From Phycisphaerae bacterium (GTDB lineage: Bacteria > Planctomycetota > Phycisphaerae > UBA1845): DNA of 64,000 nucleotides. Below are positions 23,231-45,745 of this stretch, piece by piece. Numbering within the stretch: position 1 is the first letter of the stretch; each line of letters begins with the position of its first letter. The notes under the pieces were generated by a model. That model saw only the letters and a list, made by a program, of their open reading frames with translations, searched no databases and was not told the origin of the DNA. The stretch spans positions 2,048,001-2,112,000 of the forward strand of contig CAXXGO010000001.1 of assembly GCA_963666835.2 (NCBI GenBank), in the 5' to 3' direction. The position numbers and the translations under genes were made by a program.

Positions 23231-23233
23231 TCT

Positions 23234-23566: not shown

Positions 23567-23570
23567 ATTC

Positions 23571-27752: not shown

Positions 27753-28050
27753 CCCTAATCTTTTTCACTCGTACCCCCAAGGCCCACCGATCCCCATCGG
27801 TCGGTCAGTATTTGCCGGATCGCTACCATAATCATCGGCCGGAGTATACCCGAAACGCCAGGGTTCTGCAAGACACCTATATGGCACTGAGGGGGTAACA
27901 AACACCTAAACTGTGGGTGTGGGTCGTTTGTGTCAGAGGGGGGACATCGGGGAAGGGAGAAGTAAAGGTGGTTGAAAAAGTGCCGAAGTGAAGCGATCCC
28001 CGGCAGACGGGCGCGAGACCGACCCGCCCACCGGGGTCCTCGGTTGTTGG

Positions 28051-29124: not shown

Positions 29125-29145
29125 CCCTCTATCCTCCGATATCTG

Positions 29146-29694
29146 CTACCCCTGAGCTGCAACCACCCCACGCTTCGACCGCCCAAACACGACACCGCCG
29201 ACAGCCGCGAGACCCACGAGCATTACCACGATGCCGAGATCGGAGATTGCGGGGACAGAGGCGGAAGGTGTGTCCCTGCCGATCTCAGTGAGCCACGTCG
29301 TGAACGTGATTCCACCAAAAGTCACGCCATCATCGCCAGGCTCGATCGGTACCCAATCGCCAGACAGATCTCCGCTGACGTCGATCCAATACTGTGATGG
29401 TGGTGACAAATGCCCGTAGATACCAGGCCGACCGGCAATGGTCACGCGACGATGATTGGTTTCACCATGCGAGGGCATCATTTCGTCACGAACCGCGAAC
29501 GAGTCTTGTCCAGGCGACATCGCGGCCCAGCAGATCCTCGCGGGAGTATCTACCCCAGCAAAACACGAACCCAGGCCCACCAAGGTCGATTGCGATGCAG
29601 TTCCACTCAGTTCAACCACCTGCTCAGCCTTCGCCTCCTCGCAAGCAAGAAACGCGGCGACAATCACCGCAGCAACAGAACCGATACGCAACAT
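29146..29694 (-). CDS. secreted protein with IPTL-CTERM-like sorting signal
   Basis: Signal peptide (..AKA|EQ). C-terminus VPAISDLGIVVMLVGLAAVGGVVFGRSKR. GGAGG RBS. Confidence 0.72.
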   Translation of the reverse strand: MLRIGSVAAVIVAAFLACEEAKAEQVVELSGTASQSTLVGLGSCFAGVDTPARICWAAMSPGQDSFAVRDEMMPSHGETNHRRVTIAGRPGIYGHLSPPSQYWIDVSGDLSGDWVPIEPGDDGVTFGGITFTTWLTEIGRDTPSASVPAISDLGIVVMLVGLAAVGGVVFGRSKRGVVAAQG

Positions 29695-29856
29695 CGCAGA
29701 CCCTCCCAAACATGAGACCCGCGCAACCGGCAGGACGACGAAGCCCCTCCGAGGCCGCGCGATAGATGAGCACGTCATAATACCGGACGGAGACATCGGG
29801 TTCAAGGGTTATTCAGTACTACTGTAGCTGACTTGGGGTGTGGTTAGAAAGGCAAG

Positions 29857-29892
29857 CCCCAGAAGGCGGGGGAGTGATCCCGCCCACTGGGG
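29857..29892 (-). terminator. GC-rich hairpin, terminator-like
   Basis: CCCCAG..GGCGGG-loop-CCCGCC..CTGGGG followed on the minus strand by TTGCCTTTCT. Confidence 0.45.
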
Positions 29893-29913
29893 CAAGGCAA
29901 GGTCCCGTGTGTG

Positions 29914-30120
29914 TCATCTACCGACGCATTGCATTCCGTCGGGTATCCACTTCCATTTCGTGGTTCCGCCGTCATCCCGGTTGATCGCCAGGACCTCCCC
30001 ATCACCGTTGGGGTCATCCTCAATCTGGGCAGCCCCCATCTCGATCATCGCGCAGAAGTACGGGCGAAACTTCTTCGGCGTAGTGCGTAGGAACTGGTCG
30101 GCTGGTGGTGTAGTGGCCAT
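29914..30120 (-). CDS. small hypothetical protein (element)
   Basis: AAGGA RBS, MATTPPADQFLRTTPKKFRPYF..., 25 nt after the RHH gene. Confidence 0.55.
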   Translation of the reverse strand: MATTPPADQFLRTTPKKFRPYFCAMIEMGAAQIEDDPNGDGEVLAINRDDGGTTKWKWIPDGMQCVGR

Positions 30121-30145
30121 GGATTCCTTTCCGTCCAAGAGGACA

Positions 30146-30625
30146 TCAGTCAGATGACGCCTCGATATCCGGCATCGCCTCGTTGAGCCTGTCAACCGCG
30201 CCATGGGCGAACCCCTCGATCCAGTCATCAAAGAACATGCCCTTCTGGGCCTCCTCATAGCCATCCCACCATCGGTCCTCAATTATGTCGCGGATAGACT
30301 TCCAGTCGTAGCTTCCGCCGGCCCCATCCCCTTCGATGACCTCCTTGAAGATGACCAAGTCATCCCAATCGGCGTTATTGGTCGCCCAGTCAATGCCCTG
30401 CAGTCGCCCCTCTTGCTTAGTCTCCTCACGAGTGTCCTGACTCTGCTCCTGTAACCGCGCAACCATGGTCATCTGTCCATCTCCAGAAAGTGCCTTCTCT
30501 TTCGCACGCAACGCACGAAACAACGCCTCTTGGCAGATGCGGGACACCGTGTCGCTCAAGTGTTCCCGGTACTCCTCCAAGAGCTTCTCTAGGTCCTCAG
30601 GTATCGAAATCGCTAATCTTGGCAT
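30146..30625 (-). CDS. ribbon-helix-helix (CopG/CcdA-like) regulator
   Basis: MPRLAISIPEDLEKLL...TVSRICQEAL RHH pattern; GGAG RBS. Confidence 0.7.
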   Translation of the reverse strand: MPRLAISIPEDLEKLLEEYREHLSDTVSRICQEALFRALRAKEKALSGDGQMTMVARLQEQSQDTREETKQEGRLQGIDWATNNADWDDLVIFKEVIEGDGAGGSYDWKSIRDIIEDRWWDGYEEAQKGMFFDDWIEGFAHGAVDRLNEAMPDIEASSD

Positions 30626-30650
30626 CTGGCAATCTCCGTTTAAGCCATCT

Positions 30651-30701
30651 ACTACACAACTCTACACCGCCAATGGCCAGTCGTCAAATGGATTGTGTAG
30701 T
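30651..30701 (-). promoter_or_regulatory. sigma70 promoter bracketed by an operator inverted repeat
   Basis: TTGACG-N17-TAGAGT (30687-30659), flanked by ACTACACAA (30651) / TTGTGTAGT (30693). Confidence 0.65.
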
Positions 30702-31670
30702 TTTTTCTCGTCGACACGCCCGATGCCCACTTCGTGAGCCGCGTTGCGCATTGGGTATCGGGGTCGGGATATTTTCGGGGATGAGGGGTGCTTGTCGAGC
30801 AAGAGCGGTTTGGTGAAAAGTTGGGGTGGACCCTTACTCCCCCATCTTCATGCTTTAAAAAGTGTAGGGACCCATCGACGCCCCCGGGGTACCTCTGACG
30901 ATCCGCCGACTCGACCCCATCAGCAAACCCTAGCGGGCAAGCACGTAACTGAGGTGCTCTTCAACCCCTTGATGAAACCCTGTTATAGCAGCCTTAAACG
31001 GGGGTACGTCCTATAACGCTGATTCTGTTGCATTCGATCGCCCTCGTGGAGCCGTGAAGGCCGTTAAATAGACTAGTGCTGACATTCGTTACACTTACCC
31101 GCAAGTTTATCGAGGGTATATGGACCCTGCGTGAGCCATCATCGGGTAAGCCGCTAGGCTGGTGTTAAGCTGGGTACTCTCATCGATCTGTGCCAGGTGC
31201 GAACAGCGTAGAGGGTACCTGAGCCCACCCCCAACCGGGATGAGCCCAGACGCCGCAGGCCCAACGAAGAGCCCAACCGGACAGCCTAGGGTAGGTTGAT
31301 TCAGCGTCCGGCACGTAGGTATCATCGACTCCGGGTAGGCTCGGTCTCTACGGTGGTGTTGAGTGCTTGTAGGCCGTAGGGCTCATAAGCGTGAGCATCG
31401 GCCGCCGGAAGGATCGCAGAGCGTCTCGATGGGCGTCTCGAACCGGAGTCGTGGGTGTTAGTGTTATGTTAGGGGGTTTGCGTGTGGCGATATGCGCCCT
31501 CCACCCCCCATCACTGCCTTGAATCACACTTCCCCCCTAATGCCCGACTCTTTCTGTAGGCTATTAGCTCCAAGTCATGTCCGTCAGTTCGCCGATCCGG
31601 CACCGAAGACAGTACCAAGGCTCTATCCCTAGGGTTTACCCTTGCTCCTCCCTCGATTAGTGGCGGGAGA

Positions 31671-31955
31671 GTGGTGGCAGTGGTAGCAGAGTGGTAGCAC
31701 CATCACGGCTGCTGCCACGCATCAAAACATATATATATATGCGCCAAGTCGCATTAGTGGTGGCAGTGGTAGCAGATTTCCCTTACTCAGCGAAGAAGAT
31801 AGAATCGATTTGGGCAAACCGATATCGGTAACGACAGGGAGTTTGCCGGATCTGCTGCCACTGCTGCCACGAATTCACGAAAACACTACTATAGTAGGAC
31901 AAAACGCGTGGTGGCAGATTCGACGCTGCTACCACTTGCCGTCACCTGCCATCAC
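31671..31955. other. putative replication origin of the element (iterons plus AT core)
   Basis: About 10 copies of GTGGYRGCA in both orientations (e.g. 31671, 31680, 31691, 31757, 31766, 31908 forward; 31710, 31853, 31862, 31927 reverse) around (AT)6 at 31729-31740. Confidence 0.75.
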
Positions 31956-32184
31956 ACCTTCCGATGTCTTCCTGTGATTTCCCACGTTTTCCCAAGACTT
32001 CCCACGATTTCCATACTGACCTATGGGCTCTTTGCCATCGCGGCAACTTTCCTTTATGACTGAGGTATAAGAATGACGAAGCATTAGTTGGGCAGGCGAG
32101 TAGCTCTCGCCGTAGTCGTGAGCTGGTGGAGTAACGCTCTTTCCTCCACTAGCTTGCGACTGCTCGACATAGAAGGAGCGAATA

Positions 32185-33204
32185 ATGGCGAAACGCAAAC
32201 CGAAGAAGACCGCCAAGCCGATCCGGGTCGACGTTGCCCCCCGTGATGTGCTCCGGATGTACTGTGAGCAGTTCCCGGATGCGCTCACCCGATACCAACA
32301 AGGCAAGCGATCAAACGACACCGCTCTCGATTCGCTCCGGGGCTGGCTGGATATACAACAACGTGTCGGCGGGGCAGATGACCACGTAGCCGAGTTCCGG
32401 CGCCGGTTTGAGCTTACCCAGGCGGGATACGTCCGCGCGGTCGAGTGGCTGACGACTATAATTACGACGATCGGGGAGCTCGGCGCGGAGCTCAACCTAT
32501 CCACAGACACGAAACCGGTGTACGTGCTGTTGTATGCTTTGCCGGGCGAGACGTCGGAGCACGTGACAGCGGCAGAGGGAACGGTACGCGGCTTATTGGC
32601 TGATCTCTCGGTGATAGCATCGAAGGGGAAATCCGCGGATGGTGAAGAGGGTATGACAGGCTCGGATACGGTCGAATCCAAGCAGCAGGGGGCGGTGAAC
32701 ATCCCCGATAAGGTGCAGGCCAAACCGAAAGATACGAGAACGAAAGAACAACGACTCGACGATATCAAGAGCTACATAGCCGGTCAAAAAGCTATCGAGA
32801 AGGTGGTGGGAATCGAGGACATCGCCGCTGGTGCGAATTGTAGTACGGGGTTCGTTTCACAGTCGGCACCGTGGCAAGAATACAAGGAGTCCAAGAAGGT
32901 AAGACAGAGTAAATCTGTGTGGACAACCAATTTGCTCGATCCCAATCGTGTCAATGCAGACGGAGACACCGCCCGCAGGCAGAAGCTCGGTCACGAGGCG
33001 AATGTGAACGACACCGACATGTTGATGGACATCGAGACGATTCGGGAGAAGTACCCGACATTATCTCCGCAAGAAGTCGCCCGAAAGGTCAGCGAGCTTG
33101 GCGATGAATATGAATGCACCGCCGGACATGTCGAGGCGTTCGACAATAGCCAGCGGATGAAATTCCTAACCGCCGAAACCGCTCAGCCTGTAGCCTGCTC
33201 GTGA
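32185..33204 (+). CDS. hypothetical protein with probable HTH (element regulator)
   Basis: AAGGAG RBS; IEDIAAGANCSTGFVSQS and LSPQEVARKV HTH-like segments. Confidence 0.65.
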   Translation: MAKRKPKKTAKPIRVDVAPRDVLRMYCEQFPDALTRYQQGKRSNDTALDSLRGWLDIQQRVGGADDHVAEFRRRFELTQAGYVRAVEWLTTIITTIGELGAELNLSTDTKPVYVLLYALPGETSEHVTAAEGTVRGLLADLSVIASKGKSADGEEGMTGSDTVESKQQGAVNIPDKVQAKPKDTRTKEQRLDDIKSYIAGQKAIEKVVGIEDIAAGANCSTGFVSQSAPWQEYKESKKVRQSKSVWTTNLLDPNRVNADGDTARRQKLGHEANVNDTDMLMDIETIREKYPTLSPQEVARKVSELGDEYECTAGHVEAFDNSQRMKFLTAETAQPVACS

Positions 33205-33341
33205 AATTTCATGAACTTTCACGCACACAATCCAGCCCCCAAAACGGCCATAACGACCCCGTAAAGGCCGTTCACATCTAACAACTCGTGAACACCGGGA
33301 TAGGTGAAAGCAATGTCGCTTTCCTAAACCTGGAGATTCAC
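33201..33341. promoter_or_regulatory. GTGAA/TTCAC operator-like repeats upstream of the replication operon
   Basis: Near-perfect palindrome GTGAAATTTCATGAACTTTCAC (33201-33222), plus further TTCAC/GTGAA half-sites up to the next start codon. Confidence 0.5.
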
Positions 33342-33342
33342 G

Positions 33343-33684
33343 ATGCAGAACGACGCAACGGACACACCGCCCCGGCTACTGACCACGGGGGAGATCGCCA
33401 AGCGGCTCGGCCAACGGGTTGACCGTATCGCCCGCATTCTGAGGACGAGACCACACATTCAGCCATCGGCAATGGCTGGCAACTCTCGGCTGTACGATCA
33501 TGAGTCCTACATCCTGATCTGCCGCGAGATCGCAACCATCGACGCACGGAAGACCGAGCGGAAGAGATTCATCGACAAGCTGTGCAAGGCGGCAACTGGC
33601 CCCGACCGAGCCTCTCGGCGGTTGTATTCAGACAGTGATGTGGAATTGAAGAAGCGGATGGGGCAGGAAGGCGGTGCCTCGTGA
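33343..33684 (+). CDS. MerR/Xis-like HTH protein
   Basis: LLTTGEIAKRLG...PSAMAGNSRLYD; GGAG RBS. Confidence 0.7.
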   Translation: MQNDATDTPPRLLTTGEIAKRLGQRVDRIARILRTRPHIQPSAMAGNSRLYDHESYILICREIATIDARKTERKRFIDKLCKAATGPDRASRRLYSDSDVELKKRMGQEGGAS

Positions 33685-33914
33685 AAGATCCATCCACACT
33701 CACCAGAAAAGAGATGACGGCGGCGCGGAAGGCTATACGTGAGCAGTGCCAATTGCTGAACGAAGCGGTCCTTAACGCGATGCATTGGCACGCTATGCGG
33801 CCATGTGTTGTAAGAAGGTACCTGAAGTATCTGACGGCAATTGAAGAGGAGTTCGTACGGGCTAAACCCCGAAAGGGCCCGAGGCGGAAAGGCGGCGCGG
33901 TCAATGAAGGATAA
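33681..33914 (+). CDS. small hypothetical protein (element)
   Basis: GTGA coupling with the upstream gene; overlaps the next start. Confidence 0.55.
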   Translation: MKDPSTLTRKEMTAARKAIREQCQLLNEAVLNAMHWHAMRPCVVRRYLKYLTAIEEEFVRAKPRKGPRRKGGAVNEG

Positions 33915-34383
33915 ACCCGTCATCATGATCGACCAGCGCGAGAAACTCCCGTGGAAGTTCGATAGCCCGACCGAATCTGCGTTGTTGCAGACCGCCGACT
34001 ACTCGATTCGGGGATTAGAACACCGGATCGCGATTGAGCGGAAGAGCCTTGACGACCTGCTCGGGTGTGTGGGCAGGAACCGCGAGAGGTTCACCCGTGA
34101 GCTCGAACGCCTCCAAGGTATTCAATGCCGATGCGTGGTGGTCGAGTCTAGTCTTGAGGATATCCGAGCAGGCTCATGGCGCCCGCAGATTACGCCAGCC
34201 CAGACCGTGGGCAGTATCGCTAGCTGGATGGCCAAGTTCAATGTCTGCTTCTTTCTCGCCGGCAACCGCGACTTAGCCGCAAGGTTCGCTGAGAGGTTTT
34301 TGGTCAACGCTGCCCGGACGTTGGCTTCCGAGTACGAGGCGGCTGTCGAGTTCCTCGAGGTGGCAGGAGGGCGAGATGGGTAG
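33904..34383 (+). CDS. ERCC4-domain nuclease
   Basis: IDQREKLP, ADYSI, IAIERKSLDDL, VVVE. Confidence 0.85.
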   Translation: MKDKPVIMIDQREKLPWKFDSPTESALLQTADYSIRGLEHRIAIERKSLDDLLGCVGRNRERFTRELERLQGIQCRCVVVESSLEDIRAGSWRPQITPAQTVGSIASWMAKFNVCFFLAGNRDLAARFAERFLVNAARTLASEYEAAVEFLEVAGGRDG

Positions 34384-36838
34384 TAATCAATGGCGAGAAG
34401 TCACCAAGGCTGAACCCTGCCCGATCTGCTCTCACGGCGATTGGTGCGCATTCTCGACAGACGGTTCTGCCTGCCGATGTATGCGACTGGATGCGCCATC
34501 GGCCGGATGGAAGTTCCTTCGGACTGATTCTGACGGGGGTAGTACCTTTCGGCGTACCGACGCAACCCCGACTCCGGCACCCGCGAAGCCAGACAAGCCC
34601 CGCAAGCGGCACGAGACCTTTGAGGGCGCGGTCAAAGCACTAGCTTGGAACGTTGAACGCTGTCAGAAGGAAGCCGGAAAGCGTATCGGTGCGGAGTTCG
34701 TCGCGTACTACCCATACGAGCGTCTCGACGAATCCGACAACGCAGTCGAAGTGAACCGGGAAGTCAGGTTCCTCGATCCCTCTGGCAAGAAGGAAATGAG
34801 ATGGTGTCATCAGGGCTCTGACAATCGTTGGGTGACCAAACGCGGAGATCATCGCGGCATCTTCGGGCTCGGTAATGTGCTCGCAGCACCTTCGGACACC
34901 CCGATCCTGATCGTCGAGGGCGCCAAGGTTGCTGTCCTCGCCAAGGATCTCGACCTGCTTGCGGTCACGTCTGGAGGATGCACTTCGGCTAAGCTGGTCG
35001 ACTGGTCCCCCCTCAGTGGTCGTGACGTAGTTGTCCTGCCCGATGCCGGTGAAGACGGAGCGAAGTACGCGGATGCCATACAAAGGGCACTCGCGAAGCT
35101 GAACTCTCCACCATCGGTCAAGGTTATTCGCCTGCCCGGGTTGGAGGACAGCGAGGACCTAGAAGAGTACATCGCAAACCAGCGTACCGCAGGTCTATCC
35201 GACGATGCCATCAGAGAGAAGATCGTGACGATGATTGAAGATGCCCCCAAAGCGGAACCACCAGCACCGGAGCCGGAACCGAAGAAGAAGCGTGCCGGTC
35301 CACCCATTGATGAGCAACTACTTAAGATGGTGCTTGATCGTTATGACATCCGACGTTCGATGGATGATAAGACCTTCGCCACATTGAAAGACGGCAAATC
35401 GTGCATCGTGCAGATGGTCAACACCGATCGTCGTGGGATATGCGGGGTCATGCGCAGAATGTATACCGATCGCCACGAGTATGCCAATCTGGATCAGTCG
35501 GTATTGAACAAGGTTGTTGCCACATTGGATTCACGGGGCGACGATCTAGATCGAGAGACAATCCATCTTCGTGTTGCCGATTATGGTGAGAACACATCGT
35601 ACTATGATCCGGGCTGGCGTTCGGGGCAGGCTATACAAATCGGCCCTGACGGTTGGGATGTTGTAGAGCGTCCTCCCGTATGGTTTCGACGAGCCCAGCT
35701 AACGTATCCAATGCCTGAGCCTGTGCGCGGTGGAGATCTTGATCGCCTACGTGAGCTTATCAACGTGCAGACCGATGCAGAATGGACGATGCTATTGGGA
35801 TGGTTAGTTGCATGTACGTTCGAGGTTATTGACCACCCTATTTGCTTTCTTGGCGGTCGTGCCGCCTCTGGTAAATCAACTGTAATGCACTTGATCACGA
35901 GCGCGATCGATTACCTGGGCGACGAGGATCTTGCGCCTCCAGAAGACCCACGAAGCTGGGCTGCTCTCGCCGACAATAGCTGGGTGATGCAGGCTGACAA
36001 CATATCGCATATCGATGCCGCATGGAGCAATACGTTGTGCAGCGGGGTGACTGGAGCAAGGAAACCCGACCGAGAGTTGTATACGAATACGGGGCTAGTC
36101 GTCATCGGTATGCGACGATGCATCATCCTAACGAGCATTGATGTAGGCAAGGTGCGCAGCGACTTGGCCTCCCGCCTCATGAAGATCAATCTCAAGCGAA
36201 TCGATAAGCCTCGTAAACCGAGGGTGCTGCGCGAGGCATTCAAGAGCGCTCACGGGGAGATCTTCGGCGGATTGCTCGACTTGAGCGCAAAGGTGCGAGG
36301 ACGATTGCCAAACATAACGGATACGGGATCGTTTCGTTGTGTGGACTACGCGTACATTCTCAAGGCTATTGACCAGGAACTCGGTACAACCGGGTTTGAT
36401 GCGTATGCAGCCATGCAAGCAGATTGCACACGTGCGGTGGTTGAGGATGATGTGGTGGGTGAGATGGTGGTGAAACTCGTGAGAGAGAATGGCGGGCGCT
36501 GGAGCGGGAAGATGAGAGATCTTTTTCAGATGCTGGATGGTCGCGCCGGAACGCCGAAGACACCTGCAACGCTGGGTAAGGCGATAAACCACATGGAGAA
36601 TTCGTTGGAGGCTATGGGGATTAGGTTTAAGAGTCGGCCGACTAATGATGCAAGGGTGTGGACGTTCTATGAGTTCGCATCGGATGTGGCCTCCGGAGAC
36701 GATCCCAACGTGCGGAAGTTCGCACCTGCGCCCAGCACAGACGAAGACCCATTCCCTCTGAATCCACCACCACCATCCCCGATGGAAGCGGAGGAAGTAT
36801 ATGTAGACGAGCACGGTGAGGAGTGTGGGACCATATGA
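34376..36838 (+). CDS. primase-helicase (Zn finger + TOPRIM + P-loop NTPase)
   Basis: PCPICSHGDWC..C.C, ILIVEG, VVVLPD..EDG, DLEEY (TOPRIM), GRAASGKST Walker A, DNIS, ELYTN, IILTSI, DLASR. Confidence 0.85.
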   Translation: MGSNQWREVTKAEPCPICSHGDWCAFSTDGSACRCMRLDAPSAGWKFLRTDSDGGSTFRRTDATPTPAPAKPDKPRKRHETFEGAVKALAWNVERCQKEAGKRIGAEFVAYYPYERLDESDNAVEVNREVRFLDPSGKKEMRWCHQGSDNRWVTKRGDHRGIFGLGNVLAAPSDTPILIVEGAKVAVLAKDLDLLAVTSGGCTSAKLVDWSPLSGRDVVVLPDAGEDGAKYADAIQRALAKLNSPPSVKVIRLPGLEDSEDLEEYIANQRTAGLSDDAIREKIVTMIEDAPKAEPPAPEPEPKKKRAGPPIDEQLLKMVLDRYDIRRSMDDKTFATLKDGKSCIVQMVNTDRRGICGVMRRMYTDRHEYANLDQSVLNKVVATLDSRGDDLDRETIHLRVADYGENTSYYDPGWRSGQAIQIGPDGWDVVERPPVWFRRAQLTYPMPEPVRGGDLDRLRELINVQTDAEWTMLLGWLVACTFEVIDHPICFLGGRAASGKSTVMHLITSAIDYLGDEDLAPPEDPRSWAALADNSWVMQADNISHIDAAWSNTLCSGVTGARKPDRELYTNTGLVVIGMRRCIILTSIDVGKVRSDLASRLMKINLKRIDKPRKPRVLREAFKSAHGEIFGGLLDLSAKVRGRLPNITDTGSFRCVDYAYILKAIDQELGTTGFDAYAAMQADCTRAVVEDDVVGEMVVKLVRENGGRWSGKMRDLFQMLDGRAGTPKTPATLGKAINHMENSLEAMGIRFKSRPTNDARVWTFYEFASDVASGDDPNVRKFAPAPSTDEDPFPLNPPPPSPMEAEEVYVDEHGEECGTI

Positions 36839-37206
36839 CAGCAACAACACGACAGACATGCATGGTACTCGCAGAGCTTCGTCAGAAGGACATCGAGCTA
36901 TTCATCGGGGATGGGGAATTGCGGTACGTTCCTCGACAGGCAATGACAACGGAACTCCACGCGAGACTACAGGCCCATCGAGATGCCATTTTAACGGCAT
37001 TGTCTGACCCGTGCGATACGGCCTTGGCGATAGTCGACGATGTACTTGAGCGTGAGGGTTTTGACGCTGCTCTCGATCTTGGCGAGCACTTCGAGGAACG
37101 CGCAGCCGTGCGGGAGTTCGAGGGCGATGTCTCGCGAGAGCGGGCCGAATGCGGGGCGTTGCTGGATACTTGCTATCGGCTGAATGGTAGGGGGGTGGCA
37201 GAATGA
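36835..37206 (+). CDS. small primase-associated protein (TubC-N-like N-terminus, FEERAA motif)
   Basis: ATGA overlap with the primase gene; LAELRQKDIELFIGDGELRY...LQAHRDAILTAL; FEERAAVREFEGDVSRERAE. Confidence 0.7.
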   Translation: MTATTRQTCMVLAELRQKDIELFIGDGELRYVPRQAMTTELHARLQAHRDAILTALSDPCDTALAIVDDVLEREGFDAALDLGEHFEERAAVREFEGDVSRERAECGALLDTCYRLNGRGVAE

Positions 37207-37499
37207 GTGACGCGCCACTAACCGCGCAGCAGGTCGCCGAGTATCTTCAATGCTCCGTGCAGCACGTGCGCAAACTCTGCCAGTGTGGGGCGCTCAAGTG
37301 TTCCCGCCTGCCCTCGCCGATCTCCGGCAAGATTGGACCGAAGGCTGAGTACCGGATCAGACAATCGGCGGTTGAGGAGATGTTGGGCATTGAGCCTATC
37401 AGAAAGCCTCGACGAAAGACCCTTACTCCTGCTCAGCGACGCCGGGCGCGGTCGGAATTAGAGTTGGCAAAGTCTCTGCTGCGCGCTGGAGCTGGGTAG
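37203..37499 (+). CDS. excisionase-like HTH DNA-binding protein
   Basis: LTAQQVAEYLQCSVQHVRKLCQCGALK...YRIRQSAVEE; adjacent to the integrase. Confidence 0.8.
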   Translation: MSDAPLTAQQVAEYLQCSVQHVRKLCQCGALKCSRLPSPISGKIGPKAEYRIRQSAVEEMLGIEPIRKPRRKTLTPAQRRRARSELELAKSLLRAGAG

Positions 37500-38430
37500 A
37501 CCGGACTTGGGCGTACACTTGGACCATCTTCAGGTCGACATGCCCGAGCAGTTTCGCCACCACCTCAATAGGCGTACCGGCCTCCAACCACGTTTGAGCT
37601 GCAGTATGCCTGAGCGTGTACACCCCGCGAATACCATGCCGAGAGAGCGATCGAGACAGCGATCTACGCTTCCACGGTCCTCCTCGGCAATTGTGAAAGA
37701 CAAGCTCGCCCGGTGAGTGTGGTTCGGGGATTGACTCTAGAACCTCCATCGCTTGGGGTGGCAAGTAGATCGTGCGCGGTCGTCTGGTCTTGGCTGCGGT
37801 CTTGTGCTGATCGAGTACGCAAACCCGTTTCTCCATCCGGACCTGCTCCCATGTCAAAGAGATTGCCTCACTGGGACGGCAGCCGGTCGTGAGAATGAAC
37901 GTGGCGACTCGTTTAATCGTCGGGTTCAGGGTTGACCATGCCTTGGCGATGTTCTCCGGGCTCTCGTCGCGTGGATGCAGGATCTCTTTACGATGAGGTG
38001 CAGAATCGGGTGGCTTATCAATCCAGCCCTGAGCCGCAGCCCAACGACAGACGACCCTCGCCGTAGATGTGTAACGGTTGATCGTGCTGGGCTTGAGGTC
38101 CCGCGTATCGAGGTAATCACCGTAGGCGTGAAGGACAAGCGGATCGTGGAGAATGTCGAAGGGCGCATCTGTTGCGAAGTCCTCAACCCATCGGCCAGCC
38201 GCCCGGGCTAAGTTGTGGTTGGGTTTGGCCTCCTGGCACCATCGCCGATAGAGTTCAGCAATCGAGCTAGGAGCGCCCGCACGTCGCCCCAGACCACCGA
38301 GAATCTCTCCGGCCCGCTTGTATGCGACGGCCATGTCGGTCCCGAGGTGATGATCCTTGCCGCCGACCCGTAACCTGAAGTACGGATTTCGCCCCTTCTT
38401 CCGGATGCACTGAACTGTCGGTTCTCGCAT
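37423..38430 (-). CDS. tyrosine recombinase/integrase
   Basis: TGCRPSEA (R), HKT (K), YTLRHTAA, LLGH...QVYA (H, Y); small N-terminal beta arm-binding-like domain. Confidence 0.93.
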   Translation of the reverse strand: MREPTVQCIRKKGRNPYFRLRVGGKDHHLGTDMAVAYKRAGEILGGLGRRAGAPSSIAELYRRWCQEAKPNHNLARAAGRWVEDFATDAPFDILHDPLVLHAYGDYLDTRDLKPSTINRYTSTARVVCRWAAAQGWIDKPPDSAPHRKEILHPRDESPENIAKAWSTLNPTIKRVATFILTTGCRPSEAISLTWEQVRMEKRVCVLDQHKTAAKTRRPRTIYLPPQAMEVLESIPEPHSPGELVFHNCRGGPWKRRSLSRSLSRHGIRGVYTLRHTAAQTWLEAGTPIEVVAKLLGHVDLKMVQVYAQVRSTQLQRAAETLPTLIPTAPGVAEQE

Positions 38431-38447
38431 AATTCGCCTCCCTGCTA

Positions 38448-38513
38448 GCGCCCCCTCGAACCCTTCTTACGGCATCTTAAACGCGGTTGCGATTAGGTCA
38501 AGAGGGGGCGCTC
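38448..38513. promoter_or_regulatory. right arm-type sites overlapping the integrase promoter
   Basis: GCGCCCCCTC at 38448 and AAGAGGGGGCGCTC at 38500 (exact reverse complement of 22293-22306). Minus-strand TTGACC-N16-TAAGAT (38501-38474). Confidence 0.6.
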
Positions 38514-38565
38514 GAAACGAGCAAACCACTATAATATAGGCACGAAACGCAATCCGTACCCCTTC

Positions 38566-38633
38566 TTATCAAAAATGGCGACAAGATCCGCGTCAAGGTC
38601 GAAAACCGCGAATACCAGGGCAAAGAGCACTGA
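38566..38633 (+). repeat. attR: displaced original 3' end of efp (..IKNGDKIRVKVENREYQGKEH*)
   Basis: Direct repeat of 22204-22268 followed by TGA. Confidence 0.95.
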
Positions 38634-38805: not shown

Positions 38806-39123
38806 ATGTCCGTACACGGCGGCCAACAACAGGATTCCGGATTCGACAAGACCACCGATCCCGCAGGTGGAGGGGCAGGGGCTCTGCCCTCGCGCCGCGC
38901 GATAGTAACCGGCGGGGTGAAGTTGGCTTTCGTTGCTCCGGTTCTGTCGACCTTCTTCGCCAGTCAGGCTTACGCCGCTAATTACAGTTGCTATCCGCTC
39001 GGGCACACGTGTGACACGGTCAGCGAGGGGAAACGGCAGCAGTGTTGCGGCGCGCTTACGTGCAAGGGACCTGATACGATTCCGGTTGATCCGGGCGATG
39101 TCGACGGTACGTGCCAGCCGTAA
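38806..39123 (+). CDS. putative RiPP precursor: RR/FxxPxL leader plus 6-Cys knottin-like core
   Basis: SRRAIVTGGVKLAFVAPVLSTFFASQAYA|ANYS-C-x6-C-x10-CC-x4-C-x16-C-QP; first gene of the PqqD/kinase operon. Confidence 0.75.
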   Translation: MSVHGGQQQDSGFDKTTDPAGGGAGALPSRRAIVTGGVKLAFVAPVLSTFFASQAYAANYSCYPLGHTCDTVSEGKRQQCCGALTCKGPDTIPVDPGDVDGTCQP

Positions 39124-39205: not shown

Positions 39206-40531
39206 ATGTCCTCGGCAGCATCAGGGCGGACGGCTACGTTGTTCATAATCGCTTGTGCGCTGGGCGGGGCAGGCGTGTCCGGGACGCTGCTCAAGGCGCA
39301 CGACGGCGGTTGGCAGATCGCCAGCCGGGACGGCGTCGGTCTTATTCAGTATTGCAACGCTCAGATTATTCCCAACGCCGATTGCCCGCAGGTCATGGGC
39401 AGCCGCTGGGGGTCCTTCGATGCCCGGATCGGCTCACACCGAGTGTTGGTTCCCACCTCACTGATCGGCTTGGCGTACTTCGTTGCCGTGGCCGTCTGGT
39501 TTGGGATGGTCAGTCCCGGTGGGGTCCGGGGCGGTTGGACCTGGCCGATTACAATCCTCGCAGTGGCGGCAGGGCTCGCCGGATCGTTGTTTCTCGTGGT
39601 CATCATGGCGGTGTCGGTGAGTCGATGGTGCCCCCTTTGCGTGGTCGCACATCTGTTGAACGGGGCGATTGTCATAGCGACTTTGTGGTTGTGGCGACGC
39701 ACCAGGCGTAGTCCCGATTGCAGCGTGCCGGTTGTTCCGGGGATGATTCGTCTTCGCCGCCGGCTGGCGTGGTCTGCCGCAACAGTGGCTCTGGGGGCGG
39801 CCGTGGGATTCTGGCTCTACTTCGATGCGGTGACTGAAGCCCGTCGACAATGGCGAAAGTACACTCATTTGAAGCAAGCGGTAACCGCCCTGCAGGACGA
39901 CCCGCAACTCACGCTTCGGGCGTTCTATGCTCAAGAGGTCGTCGAAGACCTATGGGACGATCGAAACGCTGATTCGGAATGGGGGGTGAGTACGCTCCGT
40001 CCGCGGCTTACGGTGTTCACGGACTACGATTGTGGCCCCTGCGCATGCTTCGAGAGTACCCGCGAGCGGGTGATCAGCGTGGCCTTTACGGACGGCGTGG
40101 ATCTCCAGGTACGCTACTGCCCTGAAACCACCGGGACGGGGCGGGCAGACGTGTCGACTTTGGCGGCGAGCTGCGCCGCGGAAGCGGCTCGGCGCCAAGG
40201 CGGATCGGACGCGCAGCTACGCATGCATCGGTTGCTGTTCATTCACCGCCAGGCTGGTCCGCAACGAGACTACGCCGACTTGGCCCGGCAGGCCGGCCTT
40301 GACGTTGACCGATTCCTGGAAGATTGGCAAAGCGAGCCGGTGCGGGAGGCGGTTCTGAGCGATATTGGTCTGGCGAACTCTCTGAAGGTCTCCGCCCCGG
40401 CCGTGTTCCTCGAAGGTCGGCGCGTGCCGGACTTGTGCGTTGAGAGCCCGACCTTCTGGGAGGCGGTTTCGGCTGAGCTGGCCAAGGAACGGGTCGCGGC
40501 CTCGTCCGAGATCGGGGAGGAGCTGCGATGA
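39206..40531 (+). CDS. VKOR-DsbA/thioredoxin fusion (disulfide-bond formation)
   Basis: YC..x..DCPQVMGSRW loop cysteines, TM helices, WCPLCVVAH (VKOR CxxC); FTDYDCGPC and SAPAVFLEG (DsbA). AAGGAAGG RBS. Confidence 0.88.
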   Translation: MSSAASGRTATLFIIACALGGAGVSGTLLKAHDGGWQIASRDGVGLIQYCNAQIIPNADCPQVMGSRWGSFDARIGSHRVLVPTSLIGLAYFVAVAVWFGMVSPGGVRGGWTWPITILAVAAGLAGSLFLVVIMAVSVSRWCPLCVVAHLLNGAIVIATLWLWRRTRRSPDCSVPVVPGMIRLRRRLAWSAATVALGAAVGFWLYFDAVTEARRQWRKYTHLKQAVTALQDDPQLTLRAFYAQEVVEDLWDDRNADSEWGVSTLRPRLTVFTDYDCGPCACFESTRERVISVAFTDGVDLQVRYCPETTGTGRADVSTLAASCAAEAARRQGGSDAQLRMHRLLFIHRQAGPQRDYADLARQAGLDVDRFLEDWQSEPVREAVLSDIGLANSLKVSAPAVFLEGRRVPDLCVESPTFWEAVSAELAKERVAASSEIGEELR

Positions 40532-40860
40532 CTGACGCGGTCAACGGCGATGGTGTGCGTCTTTCGCCGGCCGTCTGCTCCGAGTCCGGCAGTCAAGCGC
40601 GCCTCGTCCGGAGAACGGATGTCACCGTCTATGAGCTGGACGGAGAGGGGCTGGTCTTCGACGCCACCCGCGGTGACACGCATCGTCTGAACGCGACGGC
40701 TATGGCGATTTGGCGCGAATGTGACGGCCGGCAGGATGCAGCGCAGATTGCCGAACGCCTTACGGATTCTTATGACGTTTCTATGGCAGCGGCTGTTGAG
40801 CATGTGGAGAGGCTTCTTCGAGAGTTTCAGGAACGGCGGCTGGTTTACACGGCGTTTTGA
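40528..40860 (+). CDS. PqqD family protein (RiPP recognition element)
   Basis: YELDGEGLVFD...THRLNATAMAIWRECDG...IAERLTDSYDV...VERLLREF..RRLV; ATGA coupling. Confidence 0.9.
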   Translation: MTDAVNGDGVRLSPAVCSESGSQARLVRRTDVTVYELDGEGLVFDATRGDTHRLNATAMAIWRECDGRQDAAQIAERLTDSYDVSMAAAVEHVERLLREFQERRLVYTAF

Positions 40861-40872: not shown

Positions 40873-41781
40873 ATGCTTAGCATGGCCCGGGATGACAGGC
40901 AAGACGTGATGCACTTTCAGATCGGCGAGGTAGCGATGTCGCTGCGGACGCCGCTCCGGTCGTTACGCAGTCAGTATCTTGCTCTGTATGAAGACTTCCG
41001 GGTCCCGCAGCGGGCACGCAACTCCATTCGCATCGAGGTTCGCCCCTCGCAGCGGTCCTTACGCCATCGGCGGTGCTACCGGGTCTATGTGGACGGGCGA
41101 TTGCGGTTCGAGCCGACCCGGTTCAAGGAACTGCTGCCCTACGTGGAGTGGGCGGTCAACTGGGAGTTAGCCCGGGTCATGCCGCAGTTTCTGCAACTCC
41201 ACGCCTCCTCCATGGAGATTAACGGGCAGGGCGTGATTCTGCCGGGGGCGTCGGGTAGCGGAAAGTCCACCCTGACTACCGGACTGATTGCCGACGGATG
41301 GCGATATCTCTGTGATGAATTCGCGTTGATTCATTCGGGCACCCTGGAGCTTCACCCGTTTCCCCGGGCGATTTGTGTCAAGAAGCCGGCATTTTCCGTG
41401 ATGGAGTCCCTCGGGTTTCACCTGCAGAAAGCCCGGCATTACCACAAGGGGACCAAGGGCGATGTAGTTTTTCTGAATCCGTTGAATCTGCGGCCCAATG
41501 GGATCGGACGCACCTGCCCGGTACGATATGTCGTCTTTCCGCGCTACGCCGCTGGAGCGGAACCGGCGCTGGTGCCCATCAGCCGGGCGGAGGCGGCCCT
41601 CGACATGCACCACGTCTGCTTCAACCTCTTCGGGTGCCGGACGCTCGGCGTGGAGGTTCTGGCGAAGCTGGTACGGGGGGCTTCCTGTTATCGACTTATC
41701 AGTGGAGAGATTGGCAAGACCTGTCGTTTGCTCCGCGGAATGGTCGAACAGGCGGCCCAACCGCAGGCTCTAAGCGCGTAA
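40873..41781 (+). CDS. HprK-related kinase
   Basis: LQLHAS...GVILPGASGSGKSTL...GWRYLCDEFALI...HPFPRAI. Confidence 0.85.
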   Translation: MLSMARDDRQDVMHFQIGEVAMSLRTPLRSLRSQYLALYEDFRVPQRARNSIRIEVRPSQRSLRHRRCYRVYVDGRLRFEPTRFKELLPYVEWAVNWELARVMPQFLQLHASSMEINGQGVILPGASGSGKSTLTTGLIADGWRYLCDEFALIHSGTLELHPFPRAICVKKPAFSVMESLGFHLQKARHYHKGTKGDVVFLNPLNLRPNGIGRTCPVRYVVFPRYAAGAEPALVPISRAEAALDMHHVCFNLFGCRTLGVEVLAKLVRGASCYRLISGEIGKTCRLLRGMVEQAAQPQALSA

Positions 41782-41816: not shown

Positions 41817-42995
41817 ATGGAGGACTTGATGGACCATAGTGGAATCCAACTTGCCCCCTGGTTGAACGCTGCCGGTCCGCCGCGTGCCGCTGTCGAGTGG
41901 ATGGAACCAGTCGAAGTGGCCTGCGAATCCGGGCTTGCCGGGTTGCTCTTGGAACACGTTTCGCGACACGGGCTCGAACCTCCGGCAGATGCCGCCGAGA
42001 CCCTGCGCCGCGCGGCTGCGTCAGTCGCGCAAAACAACATCCACCTGCACGACGAGCTGGCTGACGTGGTTCAGGCTTTCAACCGGGCGAAGGTCCCCGT
42101 GATGCTCCTCAAAGGGGCAGCCCTCAATCATACGATCTACCCCCGATATAACCTCCGTCCGATGAGCGATCTCGACTTGCTCGTCCACCCGGATTCGGCG
42201 GAAGAGGCCGTGCAGTTGCTTGCCGATCACGGTTGTCCGCGCGGATTCGATCTCGTCCGCGACGATTTCTTCCCGAAATACCACAACGAGGTCGAGTTGC
42301 TGACGGGCTCGCCCAATCCCGCCCGGATCGATCTGCACGCGCGACCGCTACGCCCACTACGAATCTCGCAGACAATGCCGGACGACGCTCTGTGGGAAGA
42401 CGCTCAACCGGTTCATATCGGAGACGGTAAGGCGTGGATCCCCCGTCCGGAGTTAAACTGCCTCCACTTGGCGGCCCACGCGGCTTATCATGGCTGTTCC
42501 CGGTTGATCTGGCTATATGATCTTCTCAGGCTTCACGAAGCGTACGGCAGTGTCATGGATTGGGGTCTGTTGGTCGATCGGGCTCGGGAATGGAAGCTGT
42601 CGTGGCCGGTCCTTTTCGCCCTGCGTCGCGCGGGCGAGCTCCTCGGCGAAGTCTGTCCGCCAGGGGTAATCGAGAAGCTGGAGGGACATCCGATCGGCTG
42701 GCGCGACCGGTTGGCTCTAGTTCACGCTCCACGGGACGCCGCCGCCCCGATCTCTCATCTCGTAGTAGATCTGCTCTGTACGCCCGGGATTCGCTTCCGG
42801 ATAGGGTACGCCTCGTCCTTTGTGCTGCCCGGAGGTAAGCATCTGGCCGGGATCTACCCCTTCCGGCACCGGGGATGGAAGGCGGTTGCGCACCTCTGGC
42901 GGTGTCTTCGAGCCGCAGGCCGGGCTGTGGCGGGGCTGGCGAGCGCGCCGGCCGCTCTGCTGCGTCGAGGCAGCTTCCGGTTGGCGTCTCCGTAA
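41817..42995 (+). CDS. nucleotidyltransferase family protein (NTP_transf_5-like)
   Basis: MLLKGAAL, YP...RPMSDLDLLV, IDLH, HLAAHA, LIWLYDL. Confidence 0.87.
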   Translation: MEDLMDHSGIQLAPWLNAAGPPRAAVEWMEPVEVACESGLAGLLLEHVSRHGLEPPADAAETLRRAAASVAQNNIHLHDELADVVQAFNRAKVPVMLLKGAALNHTIYPRYNLRPMSDLDLLVHPDSAEEAVQLLADHGCPRGFDLVRDDFFPKYHNEVELLTGSPNPARIDLHARPLRPLRISQTMPDDALWEDAQPVHIGDGKAWIPRPELNCLHLAAHAAYHGCSRLIWLYDLLRLHEAYGSVMDWGLLVDRAREWKLSWPVLFALRRAGELLGEVCPPGVIEKLEGHPIGWRDRLALVHAPRDAAAPISHLVVDLLCTPGIRFRIGYASSFVLPGGKHLAGIYPFRHRGWKAVAHLWRCLRAAGRAVAGLASAPAALLRRGSFRLASP

Positions 42996-43132: not shown

Positions 43133-44140
43133 ATGACGCGTTGGCATCAACACACGGTGGCCGTCGTGATGACCGTGAAGAACGATCCCGCGGGTTGTGC
43201 CGTGACCCTTGGTTCGCTGGTAACCCAGACACGCCGCCCGGACGAGATAATCGTAGTAGACGGCGGGTCGACCGACGATACCGTGCGTTTGGTTCGGCAG
43301 TACCAGGGCAGCCTGCCACAATTGCGGGTTATTGACGCTCCCGGGGCCAACATCGCTCGCGGGCGAAACATCGGGGTCGAGGCGGCAGAGTCAGAGATTG
43401 TGGCCACGACCGATTGCGGATGTCGGGCGGATTCGAAGTGGCTGGAGGAGTTGCTGCGACCTTTCCAGGAGGATCCCGGCACGGAATTCGTGGCGGGTTT
43501 CTATCGAATCGAAGCCCACAGCCTTCTGGAAGAGGTTGTGGGGTTGGCGACGATGCGCGGGCAGTTGGACCCGGTCGACCCGGACAAGTTCAACCCGTCG
43601 GCTCGGTCGATGGCGCTGACCAAAGCGTTGTGGACCAGGGCGGGGGGCTGGCCGGAGTGGATCTCGTTTTCCGAAGACACCCTCCTGGATCACAAGATAA
43701 GGCAGATGGACGTCGGGTGGGCTTTCGCCGGAGATGCGGTGGTACGCTGGCGTCCGCGCCGGTCGCTTCCGGCAATTGCCCGCCAGTTTCATAATTACGG
43801 CACCGGGCGGGGGCACACGCAGATTGATGCCGCGGGCTATCTTTACGACGTTCGGAACGGCCTGCTCTTTGCGGGGACGGCGGTTGCCAGCCTGTGGACG
43901 GTGTGGGCGCTGCCGCTTCTTGTCGCGATTTTTGGCTATTTCTATGTTTGGGCGTTTCACCACAAGGCGATGCGTGTGGCCCGCCGGGCCGGACGCTGGC
44001 CGGCATACCCGCTTTGCCTCTGCGTTATGTGGGTGATCATTGCGGTGAACATCACCGGGTTCCTGGCGGGTTCCTGGCAGAGGCAACGGGATCAGGGTCG
44101 ATACCGGCGTCGGCTCGAGGCATACCTGGCCGGCCCCTGA
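43133..44140 (+). CDS. GT2 family glycosyltransferase with C-terminal TM helices
   Basis: QTRRPDEIIVVDGGSTDDT, NIARGRN, TTDCGC, GGWPE...SEDT. Confidence 0.88.
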   Translation: MTRWHQHTVAVVMTVKNDPAGCAVTLGSLVTQTRRPDEIIVVDGGSTDDTVRLVRQYQGSLPQLRVIDAPGANIARGRNIGVEAAESEIVATTDCGCRADSKWLEELLRPFQEDPGTEFVAGFYRIEAHSLLEEVVGLATMRGQLDPVDPDKFNPSARSMALTKALWTRAGGWPEWISFSEDTLLDHKIRQMDVGWAFAGDAVVRWRPRRSLPAIARQFHNYGTGRGHTQIDAAGYLYDVRNGLLFAGTAVASLWTVWALPLLVAIFGYFYVWAFHHKAMRVARRAGRWPAYPLCLCVMWVIIAVNITGFLAGSWQRQRDQGRYRRRLEAYLAGP

Positions 44141-44305
44141 GACTCCGTCCCCGCTTACCAAGGGAGGATCGAGGGGCGTCGATTCGGGAGCTGCAGAGTT
44201 TTCCGGGGTTTTCAACAAGAACGCCCGTAGTGACTTAGAAAAGTGCCCGACGCCGACAATGGAGCGGCCTATCCAGTGAATCGAAACCAGCCAACCCGCT
44301 CCACG

Positions 44306-45745
44306 ATGAGGCGACGCTGGCTGTGTGTCGCCTACGCTTTCCCTCCGATCAATCGAAGCGGAACGCACCGCACCTTGGGCTTCGTGAGGCACCTGGATTC
44401 GCTTGGGTGGGACGCCACCGTGCTAACCGTGGATCCAGGGGATGAGCCGGTTGATGCTGGTCTCCTTGACCGGGTCCCCGAGTCGACCGAGGTCATTCAA
44501 TCGCTGTGGACGGACCTTATCGCCCAGGCAAAACGGATGTTGTGCCTCGGGCGTTCTCAAGAGAGAGCGAGTGATTTTCCCCGCGACGCCGCGCGTTACG
44601 ACCAAACCGTCATCAGCGGAACCGCCCGCGATGGAAAGCCGGGCGGGGTGAAGGAGTGGGTGTCCCGTTTGTTGATTACTCCGGATTCCCGGCTTGGTTG
44701 GCTCGGTCCGGCAACACGCCGGGGTATGGCCGCAATTCGCCGACGGCGCCCCGAGGTGATCTACTCGACCTCACCGTATATGACGGCTCATCTGATCGCG
44801 GCGCGACTTGCCCGCCGAACGGGCGTCCCCTGGGTTGCGGATTTTCGAGATCCGTGGTGCGACAACCCGTTCCGCAGTCTAGGCTTCACGAGTCTTCGGC
44901 GATGGGATGAATGGTTGGAGCGTCGGACCCTTCGCCGCGCCGCTCATGTAGTATGCACGACCTCGACCATGCGGGATCGATTTGCGGAGCGACTGCCGTT
45001 CGTGCGCGAAAAGTCCAGCGTCATCACCAACGGGTTCGACGCAGAGCTGTTGACCGGCCTTACGCCGACACGCGTTGCGCCGGTGGAAGATCTGGTCCTG
45101 ACCCACTGTGGACAGTTCTACGGGCCGCGTCGCCCGCAGGTGTGGTTCGATGCCCTAAGACGGGTGCTGGACCAACCTTCGGATCGACCGCGGAGAATCC
45201 ACTTGCAGTTGCTCGGACCGGATTCGTACGAGGGCCGGCCGCTGATGGAACTGGCCGCGGACGCGGGAGTCGCCGAGCATGTTCACGTGTCGGGCTCCAA
45301 GAGCCATCGGGAGGCTCTATCGCACATGGCCGGCAGTGACGTGTTGCTGCTGGCCGGATCGTCGGGCGTCGGTAGCGATCTGCAGGTGCCCAACAAACTG
45401 TTCGAGTACCTTGCCGTGCGCCGGCCGATTATCGCCGCGGTTTCCGCAAACAGCCCGGTCGTTGGGATCCTCCGCGAAGCCGGGGCGGAGGCGTCTGTCT
45501 GCGATCCGGAAGATGCACTCGGTATTGCCGAAGCGATCGAGAACCTCTCCGAATCGCATAGTCCGGACCCCGCGCAAGCATGGGATGGCGTTTCCCGGTT
45601 CGACCGCGCCAATCGAGCGCGCGAGCTGGCTGCGATCTTTCAGCACGTATCCCAGTCGAAGATCCTCGGACGGACATCGCGGATTGCCGCCGCCGACCAC
45701 AAGTGCCAAGGCGTAGACACCGCCCGCGGCTACGCCCACGGATAG
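44306..45745 (+). CDS. GT4 family glycosyltransferase
   Basis: AYAFPP, GWDATVLT, PDSRLGW, PWVADFRDPW, ITNGFD, VPNKLFEYL. Alternative GTG start at 44243. Confidence 0.88.
   Translation: MRRRWLCVAYAFPPINRSGTHRTLGFVRHLDSLGWDATVLTVDPGDEPVDAGLLDRVPESTEVIQSLWTDLIAQAKRMLCLGRSQERASDFPRDAARYDQTVISGTARDGKPGGVKEWVSRLLITPDSRLGWLGPATRRGMAAIRRRRPEVIYSTSPYMTAHLIAARLARRTGVPWVADFRDPWCDNPFRSLGFTSLRRWDEWLERRTLRRAAHVVCTTSTMRDRFAERLPFVREKSSVITNGFDAELLTGLTPTRVAPVEDLVLTHCGQFYGPRRPQVWFDALRRVLDQPSDRPRRIHLQLLGPDSYEGRPLMELAADAGVAEHVHVSGSKSHREALSHMAGSDVLLLAGSSGVGSDLQVPNKLFEYLAVRRPIIAAVSANSPVVGILREAGAEASVCDPEDALGIAEAIENLSESHSPDPAQAWDGVSRFDRANRARELAAIFQHVSQSKILGRTSRIAAADHKCQGVDTARGYAHG

Follow-up and report, generated by a model that had tools for sequence, protein, structure and literature searches.

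Knottin studies are almost confined to animals, plants and fungi. The KNOTTIN database paper defines a knottin by a III-VI disulfide threading the ring formed by disulfides I-IV and II-V, and lists bacterial knottin sequences, as of 2017 without an experimental structure (PMC5753296). The framework by itself is not new, since bacterial knottins are already known as sequences. The closest characterised system to the one described here is the pathway for linear polyphosphorylated peptides (LPPs), comprising LppA/K/B/S/D/N of Paenibacillus alginolyticus (Popov et al., Nat Commun 2026, PMC13381572). According to the main text of that paper, LppK phosphorylates the precursor up to four times, with core Ser3 as the sole site and the S3A substitution abolishing modification; deletion of the nucleotidyltransferase (NTase) brought no detectable change; and the loci lie in capsule regions and occur patchily in Bacillota. 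The RRE leader motif [Y/W]xxPx[L/V/I/F/A] is given there for both lasso and LPP systems. In pseudomycoidin, as presented in PMC8498205, the phosphate is extended by one or two hexoses through an NTase. For the HPr-rel-A system, the literature searched under its system names yielded no paper. We take an adjacent NTase to be the third, defining gene of that system.

Here we describe an operon within a 64-kb stretch of the genome of a Phycisphaerae bacterium (the window; Table 1). The preliminary description had recognised its first gene as encoding a bacterial peptide with an inhibitor-cystine-knot (ICK) cysteine framework; what it missed is that the gene is best explained as the substrate gene of an RRE/kinase/NTase cassette. 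Our main reading, to which we assign a probability of roughly 60%, is that the peptide is the substrate of an RRE-guided modification pathway of the HPr-rel-A/LPP type, carries an ICK-type core with three disulfides and serves in the cell envelope. The parts are known, namely the ICK framework, the RRE-kinase-NTase cassette and VKOR; the combination appears new, and no description of a knottin core with such a cassette was found in the literature searched, which takes in few subscription journals.

Table 1. Positions of the precursor, its segments, the operon genes and related features (window coordinates unless a contig is given).
Feature	Position	Strand	Basis
Precursor gene, 105 aa: variable N-terminus, Tat-like/RRE leader, Ser linker, six-Cys core	38806..39123	+	ORF and homologues
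Twin-arginine motif S29-R-R-A-I-V34	38890..38907	+	Tat-type rule
RRE-docking segment, residues 39-52, F42-x-x-P45-x-L47 and T49	38920..38961	+	motif conservation, predicted interface
A55-Y56-A57, predicted signal peptidase I site (cleavage inferred)	38968..38976	+	Ala conservation
Ser61, predicted phosphorylation site, 16 residues past leader Pro	38986..38988	+	conservation, analogy to LppA Ser3
Six-Cys ICK-type domain, C62-C103	38989..39114	+	alignment, fold model, structural neighbours
VKOR-DsbA-like fusion, 441 aa	39206..40531	+	Pfam VKOR 54 bits, DSBA 29.9 bits, both over cut-off
PqqD-family RRE	40528..40860	+	TIGR04353 43.1 bits (cut-off 35); PF05402; fused-homologue fold
HprK-related kinase A-like	40873..41781	+	TIGR04352 189.3 bits (cut-off 200), profile positions 2-278 of 280
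NTP_transf_5 nucleotidyltransferase	41820..42995	+	PF14907 181 bits; KG, RxxxDxD motifs kept
GT2 glycosyltransferase	43133..44140	+	linkage in many knot loci, though not specific to the knot
GT4 glycosyltransferase, accompanies GT2	44243..45745	+	
Right-hand att repeat, copy of efp 3' end; boundary, outside the system	38556..38630	+	75-nt direct repeat with 22194-22268; efp by Pfam
Trypsin-like protease / Dictyostelium-repeat protein with terminal module	G000:C5:158498-160711, G000:C6:883830-885497 (L105, L106)	-	

Set beside the LPP main text, the window system is alike in having a stand-alone RRE, a kinase resembling HprK and an NTP transferase with no macrolactam cyclase; among neighbours common to at least three of our loci, no family of cyclase size recurs. 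It also resembles LPP in its aromatic-x-x-P-x-(V/L) leader motif, in pairing a conserved N-terminus with a variable C-terminus, and in its nearby glycosyltransferases, and the target Ser stands shortly after the start of the core, its distance from the leader Pro being 15 residues in LppA (Ser3) and 16 in the window precursor, where the Ser is predicted. However, LPP clusters include a SipW-like SpI peptidase and an MsbA-like exporter, neither of which occurs as an ORF between 38806 and 45745 or among the recurring neighbours of 52 loci. In turn, the window system has a twin-arginine/AxA leader, Phe in place of Tyr/Trp, the six-Cys knot and VKOR-DsbA. Its leader departs from the LPP consensus YxxPxVLxHQxIxFETxxS, sharing only aromatic-x-x-P-x-aliphatic and the downstream Ser, and its cassette is near-universal in one Phycisphaerae family whereas LPP is patchy in Bacillota. 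The words knottin, disulfide, twin-arginine and Planctomycet are absent from the LPP main text (PMC13381572). As far as the main text allows comparison, the window system is thus not an LPP system by membership, having no SpI/MsbA gene and another consensus. By analogy, it probably works like LPP with a knottin as its cargo.

The other relatives are close in part. As in HPr-rel-A, the window PqqD scores above the TIGR04353 cut-off, the kinase alignment spans the TIGR04352 model and an NTP_transf_5 gene adjoins; yet the kinase scores below the TIGR04352 cut-off (Table 1), and no precursor model was matched. Features common to the paeninodin and pseudomycoidin pathways, as far as PMC8498205 describes them, are an HPr-kinase homologue whose target is a Ser in the precursor before folding, a hexose-adding NTase and a B1-type RRE. 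The window loci differ from lasso loci in that no lasso cyclase or B2 peptidase recurs, the constraint is a disulfide one and the Ser stands ahead of a folded domain. With the ICK knottins (agelenin 2E2S, tachystatin B 2DCW, asteropsins, O-superfamily conotoxins) the core has the C-C-CC-C-C framework in common; unlike them, it is bacterial, follows an RRE/Tat leader, comes with tailoring enzymes and has long loops 2 and 4. The putative CCPGW bacteriocins of NF047792 are likewise small Cys-containing bacterial peptides, with weak similarity around the CCPG motif. Membership in that family was considered and rejected: the window peptide gives no match, and 3 of 73 relatives reach 11-16 bits (best 16.4) against a cut-off of 80.

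The cysteine framework in the preliminary description is real. Re-reading the gene places the cysteines at residues 62, 69, 80, 81, 86 and 103 of 105 (C-x6-C-x10-CC-x4-C-x16-C), the six cysteines are invariant in all 19 rows of the homologue alignment, and the 48-residue stretch downstream of AYA agrees with the core proposed there. A six-frame scan of the 6.0-Mb genome (12.0 million residues) gave ten strict matches to the framework; the precursor is the only small ORF among them, the remaining nine lying in ORFs of 556-1804 aa. Because this is the sole small-ORF match in the genome and the six cysteines are kept by homologues, the framework goes beyond chance. The precursor is single-copy in its own genome, and Pfam and NCBIfam scans of it returned no family at E<=0.1. 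An unbiased protein search recovered 18 homologues out of 20 candidates; invariant in the resulting 19-row alignment are the six Cys, the RR pair, F42, P45, S48, T49, S61 and Y63. Homologous cores are also widely found by profile: among 1.84 billion representatives, 98 cluster representatives match at E<=0.001, of which 88 have the framework, six do not, and the other four are long proteins visible at their ends alone. Cys invariance in a larger alignment (A2, 73 rows) is a product of selection, and we do not count it as evidence.

Comparison with a sister strain lists at least 11 positions differing from the window ORF (codons read by hand; contig depth 4.6). Five of the 11 listed fall in the variable N-terminus and give four amino-acid changes, and six fall in the conserved part, where five are silent and one exchanges Ile for Leu; homologue P0001 has the same five amino-acid changes as the sister strain. 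We give little weight to a codon-position test on 36 leader blocks (differences 1302/606/4823), since choosing the blocks by amino-acid pattern biases it. Precursor genes with lost Cys or shifted frames are seen in L013:7474-7845, L073:9764-10078, P0071, P0079, P0080 and P0082, which suggests turnover of extra precursor genes. Tandem precursor genes in L024, L063 and L072 have near-identical or similar leaders and differing cores.

Loop lengths were taken from 144 distinct knot-bearing precursors, a pattern-selected set that includes near-duplicates. Loop 1 has six residues in 132 of the 144 and loop 3 has three or four in 136; the modes of loops 2 and 4 are 5 (62/144) and 4 (59/144). The family's modal loops are thus 6-5-(3/4)-4, and the 10 and 16 residues of the window copy mark the long extreme. 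The remark that loops 2 and 4 exceed those of typical knottins therefore holds locally, not for the family at large. A special role for the long acidic loop, also suggested at that stage, finds no support in the comparison: loop 4 reaches 15 or more residues in only 8 of 144 relatives, and we dropped the loop as a functional site of the family. Gly stands at Cys I+4 in 119 of 144 precursors and His at Cys I+5 in 93 (His67 here), and two CC motifs, or tandem knots, occur in 22. One sub-clade (L021, L046-L050, L071; P0090, P0106, P0107) fuses PqqD, leader and double knot in a single chain, with Cys VI of knot 1 abutting Cys I of knot 2 and no linker between them.

AlphaFold2, given the 73 rows, modelled the 48-residue core with pLDDT 76 and pTM 0.57, placing strands at core residues 11-13, 28-30 and 43-47. 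Foldseek with this model gave 39 matches at E<=10, the best at E 0.32 and none at E<=0.001, headed by asteropsins and other small disulfide-rich toxins. VIA-align placed 41 of 48,161 chains at Z>=2 (Z up to 3.8), mostly ICK peptides, with IGFBP, colipase and Dickkopf-type domains among the others; agelenin (2E2S) aligned over 35/35 residues at 2.0 A with Z 3.6. These fold scores are low, and the predictor is prone to an ICK shape for any such Cys pattern. A search of PDB sequences with the family profile gave four rows at E<=10, none significant (best E 2.6), three being peptides of 33-36 residues and two of these named spider toxins. Taken with the canonical loops of the homologues and the oxidase gene directly downstream, the mostly ICK, weakly scored neighbours support the ICK assignment, which is the best reading of the six-Cys domain; pairing I-IV, II-V, III-VI would follow from it. 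Two large secreted-type ORFs of the same genome end in a C-x6-C-x5-CC-x3-C-x4-C module (Table 1). Judged by sequence, these terminal modules are a possible source of the knot and a possible sign that it is used as a plain domain in this lineage.

The leader appears to combine an export signal with an RRE tag. A Tat-type motif followed by 13 uncharged residues is present, by a TatFind-like rule, in 138 of 144 knot precursors, a set selected for RR. In several relatives the Tat motif is close to ideal (SRRKFLK and SRRAFL, for example), and TatC is present in the genome. The h-region of the window leader is short, with Lys just before it, and curated Tat-signal profiles list no match for the precursor or the 73 relatives. 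Around the leader Pro, the position P-3 is F/Y/W in 130 of 142 sequences, P+2 is L/I/V in 137 and P+4 is T in 125, and Ala occupies P+10 in 127 and P+12 in 131, giving a family consensus of FVAPV(L/I/V)STFFAxxAYAANYS. For PqqD and the leader, complex prediction gave a score of 0.69, the best of three controls reaching 0.00, with residues 39-52 as the predicted interface; runs agree in at least 95% of contacts, with partner pLDDT of at least 62. Of 157 solved complexes, 116 reach the mark applied to this score, as do 2 of 215 mismatched pairs; the pair being of a textbook type, the score may show likeness to solved lasso B1-leader complexes, not binding.

Natural fusions tie the leader to the enzymes. 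The precursor is fused behind PqqD in six database proteins and seven loci, and behind the kinase in three full-length ORFs. In a model of one PqqD-precursor fusion the RRE domain has pLDDT of about 90 and resembles TbiB1/TfuB1 and the B1 of 6JX3, and leader residues 143-147 (VSTFF) of the same fusion are modelled as a strand at moderate confidence. In the RRE and kinase fusions some 90-350 residues precede the RR motif, a position that speaks against a plain, classical Tat signal or implies a second start codon.

The gene order precursor-[VKOR-DsbA]-PqqD-kinase-NTase-[GT2-GT4] recurs in Phycisphaerae and metagenome loci; a promoter and terminator scan of the plus strand gave nothing useful. 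TIGR04352 is by far the best family for the kinase, which keeps its His, P-loop and (C/S)DE motifs, and no solved relative of the NTase was found by sequence. The VKOR cysteines C50, C60, C142 and C145, as expected for a loop pair and a membrane CXXC, are kept in 23/23 cluster copies. The window copy has four hydrophobic segments above 1.6 and a fifth at 1.55, and CGPC in its thioredoxin domain at 276-279; the fifth, weaker segment follows an Arg cluster and would leave the thioredoxin domain on the outer side of the membrane. Of 23 cluster copies, 14 keep the thioredoxin CXXC and nine have lost it. An extra Cys281 occurs in 23/23 cluster VKOR-DsbA copies and 0/4 stand-alone ones, and Cys411 in 19 of 21 cluster copies that cover the position, stand-alone copies being without either. 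VKOR-DsbA is a probable dedicated disulfide oxidase or chaperone, and its DsbA partner domain seems remodelled for a knot client.

Sister precursors without the knot point to the residue on which the cassette probably acts. In the knot-bearing set, Ser stands directly before Cys I in 115 of 144 precursors, and at P+13 to P+18 in 133 of 142. We surveyed 60 genomes of the same Phycisphaerae family, counting profile matches by hand. Of these, 49 match the precursor profile at E<=0.01 and 41 also at E<=1e-5; 41 of the 60 genomes carry precursors of the knot type. In fourteen family genomes, eight with weak matches and six further ones that bear the kinase but gave no match, the same leader runs into a tail of 5-9 residues that contains no Cys. 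These tails are Ser-rich and 13 of the 14 end in Ser (for example ASGMSVTS, ASPSS and GSGVSPVS), as do phosphorylated lasso precursors. The knot-less precursors adjoin kinase and NTase genes, with PqqD detected in 13/14. Since the same leader and cassette accompany a Ser tail with no knot, the likely target of the enzymes is the Ser just past the AxA site (Ser61 here), with the knot as an add-on. In four of the knot-less cassettes (L075, L076, L078, L080), a conserved gene for a membrane protein of about 690-720 aa lies alongside.

VKOR and GT2/GT4 occur in 0/14 of the knot-less stretches (3.6-18 kb), and among the 24 knot rows 14 have a neighbouring VKOR gene and ten have none. In an unrooted kinase tree of 32 rows, knot and knot-less forms are separated by a single split (support 92/93, not starred), so that by sequence the association of knot with VKOR amounts to about one evolutionary event. 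The idea that VKOR is missing from knot-less genomes proved false: 4/4 tested hold an unlinked, divergent copy on its own branch. Nor is there support for GT2/GT4 as knot-specific enzymes, an unlinked GT2 orthologue being present in 5/5 knot-less genomes tested.

The kinase is found in 53 of the 60 family genomes. The 21 GTDB loci are all labelled Phycisphaerae/Planctomycetota except two labelled only 'uncultured bacterium'; one of the more distant knot precursors bears an Acidobacteriota label, and in the Atlas the closest clusters consist of Thermomicrobiota proteins, similarly Cys-rich, which we treat as a lead only. Outside the family, a phylum search scoring 16 candidates per genome found one of 300 genomes at E<=1e-5, with a CxP repeat as its core. 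That locus (L070:7526-7798, minus strand; genome G086), in another class of the phylum, combines the same leader and cassette with a CxP-repeat core, QSASCQPENCHPVDC..., a third core type. Orphan knot precursors (L005, L013, L019, L027, L037, L041) stand divergent from a conserved secreted-protein gene; at these six loci its product, of 540-690 aa with HYR/PKD-like domains, is a possible partner or display scaffold. Upstream of the operon lies an integrated element of 16.4 kb (22194-38630), with the efp 3' end as a 75-nt direct repeat on either side, and containing a tyrosine integrase (37423-38430, minus strand) and a large primase-like ORF (34376-36838). Its attachment site is the efp gene, not a tRNA; the 64-kb window has no tRNA gene. 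We considered the precursor as cargo of this element and rejected the idea: the att repeat stops at 38630, before the precursor gene, so the operon is chromosomal. In run X2 the operon is covered, with zero depth at 37000-38504, the right end of the element.

From the gene, its conservation, the operon linkage, the fusions and the motif conservation observed here, we infer the following chemical steps. PqqD, as modelled, would bind the FxxPxL segment of the leader in the cytoplasm. The HprK-type kinase would then phosphorylate Ser61, perhaps repeatedly, as LppK and the paeninodin kinases suggest. NTP_transf_5, possibly with GT2/GT4, might add a sugar or nucleotide to the phosphate by the precedent of pseudomycoidin, this being the weakest step. 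The still-reduced peptide would pass through Tat by way of its twin-arginine leader, and signal peptidase I would cut after AYA. Outside the cytoplasmic membrane, the membrane VKOR-DsbA would oxidise the six cysteines to the I-IV, II-V, III-VI knot. The modified Ser would be the conserved business end and the knot a protease-resistant carrier with free loops. The product would then have a lineage-wide role in the cell envelope, as a display unit or as a primer or anchor of a surface glycan, and be no weapon. More tentatively, and with less confidence than the main reading, we propose that the system may be an undescribed RiPP class in which the Ser before Cys I is phosphorylated and then glycosylated or nucleotidylated, the peptide is exported unfolded by Tat and its own VKOR-DsbA ties the knot. 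The leader would in that case double as RRE tag, and the thioredoxin domain of VKOR-DsbA would be the remodelled part.

The main rival to the envelope role accepts the same biosynthesis and sees the released knottin as a bioactive product outside the cell, be it an antimicrobial, an anti-grazer peptide or a protease inhibitor, with variable loops that bind and a phospho-Ser as switch or solubility tag. Such a product would account for the wide variation of loops 2 and 4 within a fixed Cys frame, for the two or three precursor copies of some genomes, tandem and orphan ones included, and for the double knots of 22/144 precursors; some homologues also score weakly against venom Pfam models. Those venom matches, however, reflect Cys spacing and nearly all fall below cut-off, the core is acidic (pI 4.45), and no immunity-like gene is found among the recurring neighbours. 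The cassette, moreover, occurs in 53 of 60 family genomes and operates without a knot in 14. We consider this explanation unlikely. Because nearly all genomes of the family have the cassette, and because it can do without the knot entirely, the peptide most likely acts as part of the envelope and not as a toxin of the venom kind. In another alternative the leader is uncleaved or the peptide unexported, so that it stays at the membrane, the RRE or the kinase as a phosphorylated carrier or primer, the RR being a relic or topology signal. The internal RR of the RRE and kinase fusions, the very small size of 5-9 residue cores as free products and the overlap of the hydrophobic stretch with the RRE site would all suit a retained carrier; the strongly conserved AxA site, the near-perfect Tat motifs of several relatives and an oxidase that implies Cys at the outer side of the membrane make it improbable.

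Two further explanations bear on the core and on its company. The six Cys, with His67, might bind metal, or the disulfides might be non-knotted, as His at Cys I+5 in 93/144 and the ten of 24 knot rows without an adjacent oxidase would allow. Against this stand the strict C-C-CC-C-C order with canonical ICK loops, the Gly at Cys I+4 in 119/144, the export-type leader, the adjacent VKOR with its four catalytic Cys in 23/23 copies, the ICK fold neighbours and the use of the same module to terminate two large secreted-type proteins of the genome, and we regard it as improbable. That an ordinary small Tat substrate is merely a chance neighbour of an unrelated enzyme cassette is very improbable: orphan copies do lie away from the cassette in several loci, and similar Cys-rich proteins appear in Thermomicrobiota clusters, but the precursor is repeatedly fused to PqqD and kinase, its adjacency is fixed in knot and knot-less clades alike, the RRE motif is kept in 130-137 of 142 sequences and the complex score is 0.69 versus 0.00.

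If the more tentative reading as an undescribed RiPP class is true, this system would supply the first bacterial knottin with a solved structure, a prokaryote's own machine for knottin folding and more than 100 natural loop variants. With the knot tied to a defined cassette, fold, modification and export become testable with a construct of 6-7 genes, and a dedicated VKOR-DsbA for a three-disulfide knot could aid the production of disulfide-rich scaffolds in bacteria. The split into sister clades with and without the knot amounts to a natural experiment, and it points to the residue on which the HPr-rel-A kinase and NTP_transf_5 would act. For the organisms themselves, the near-universal presence of the cassette suggests an envelope feature of this uncultured Phycisphaerae family.
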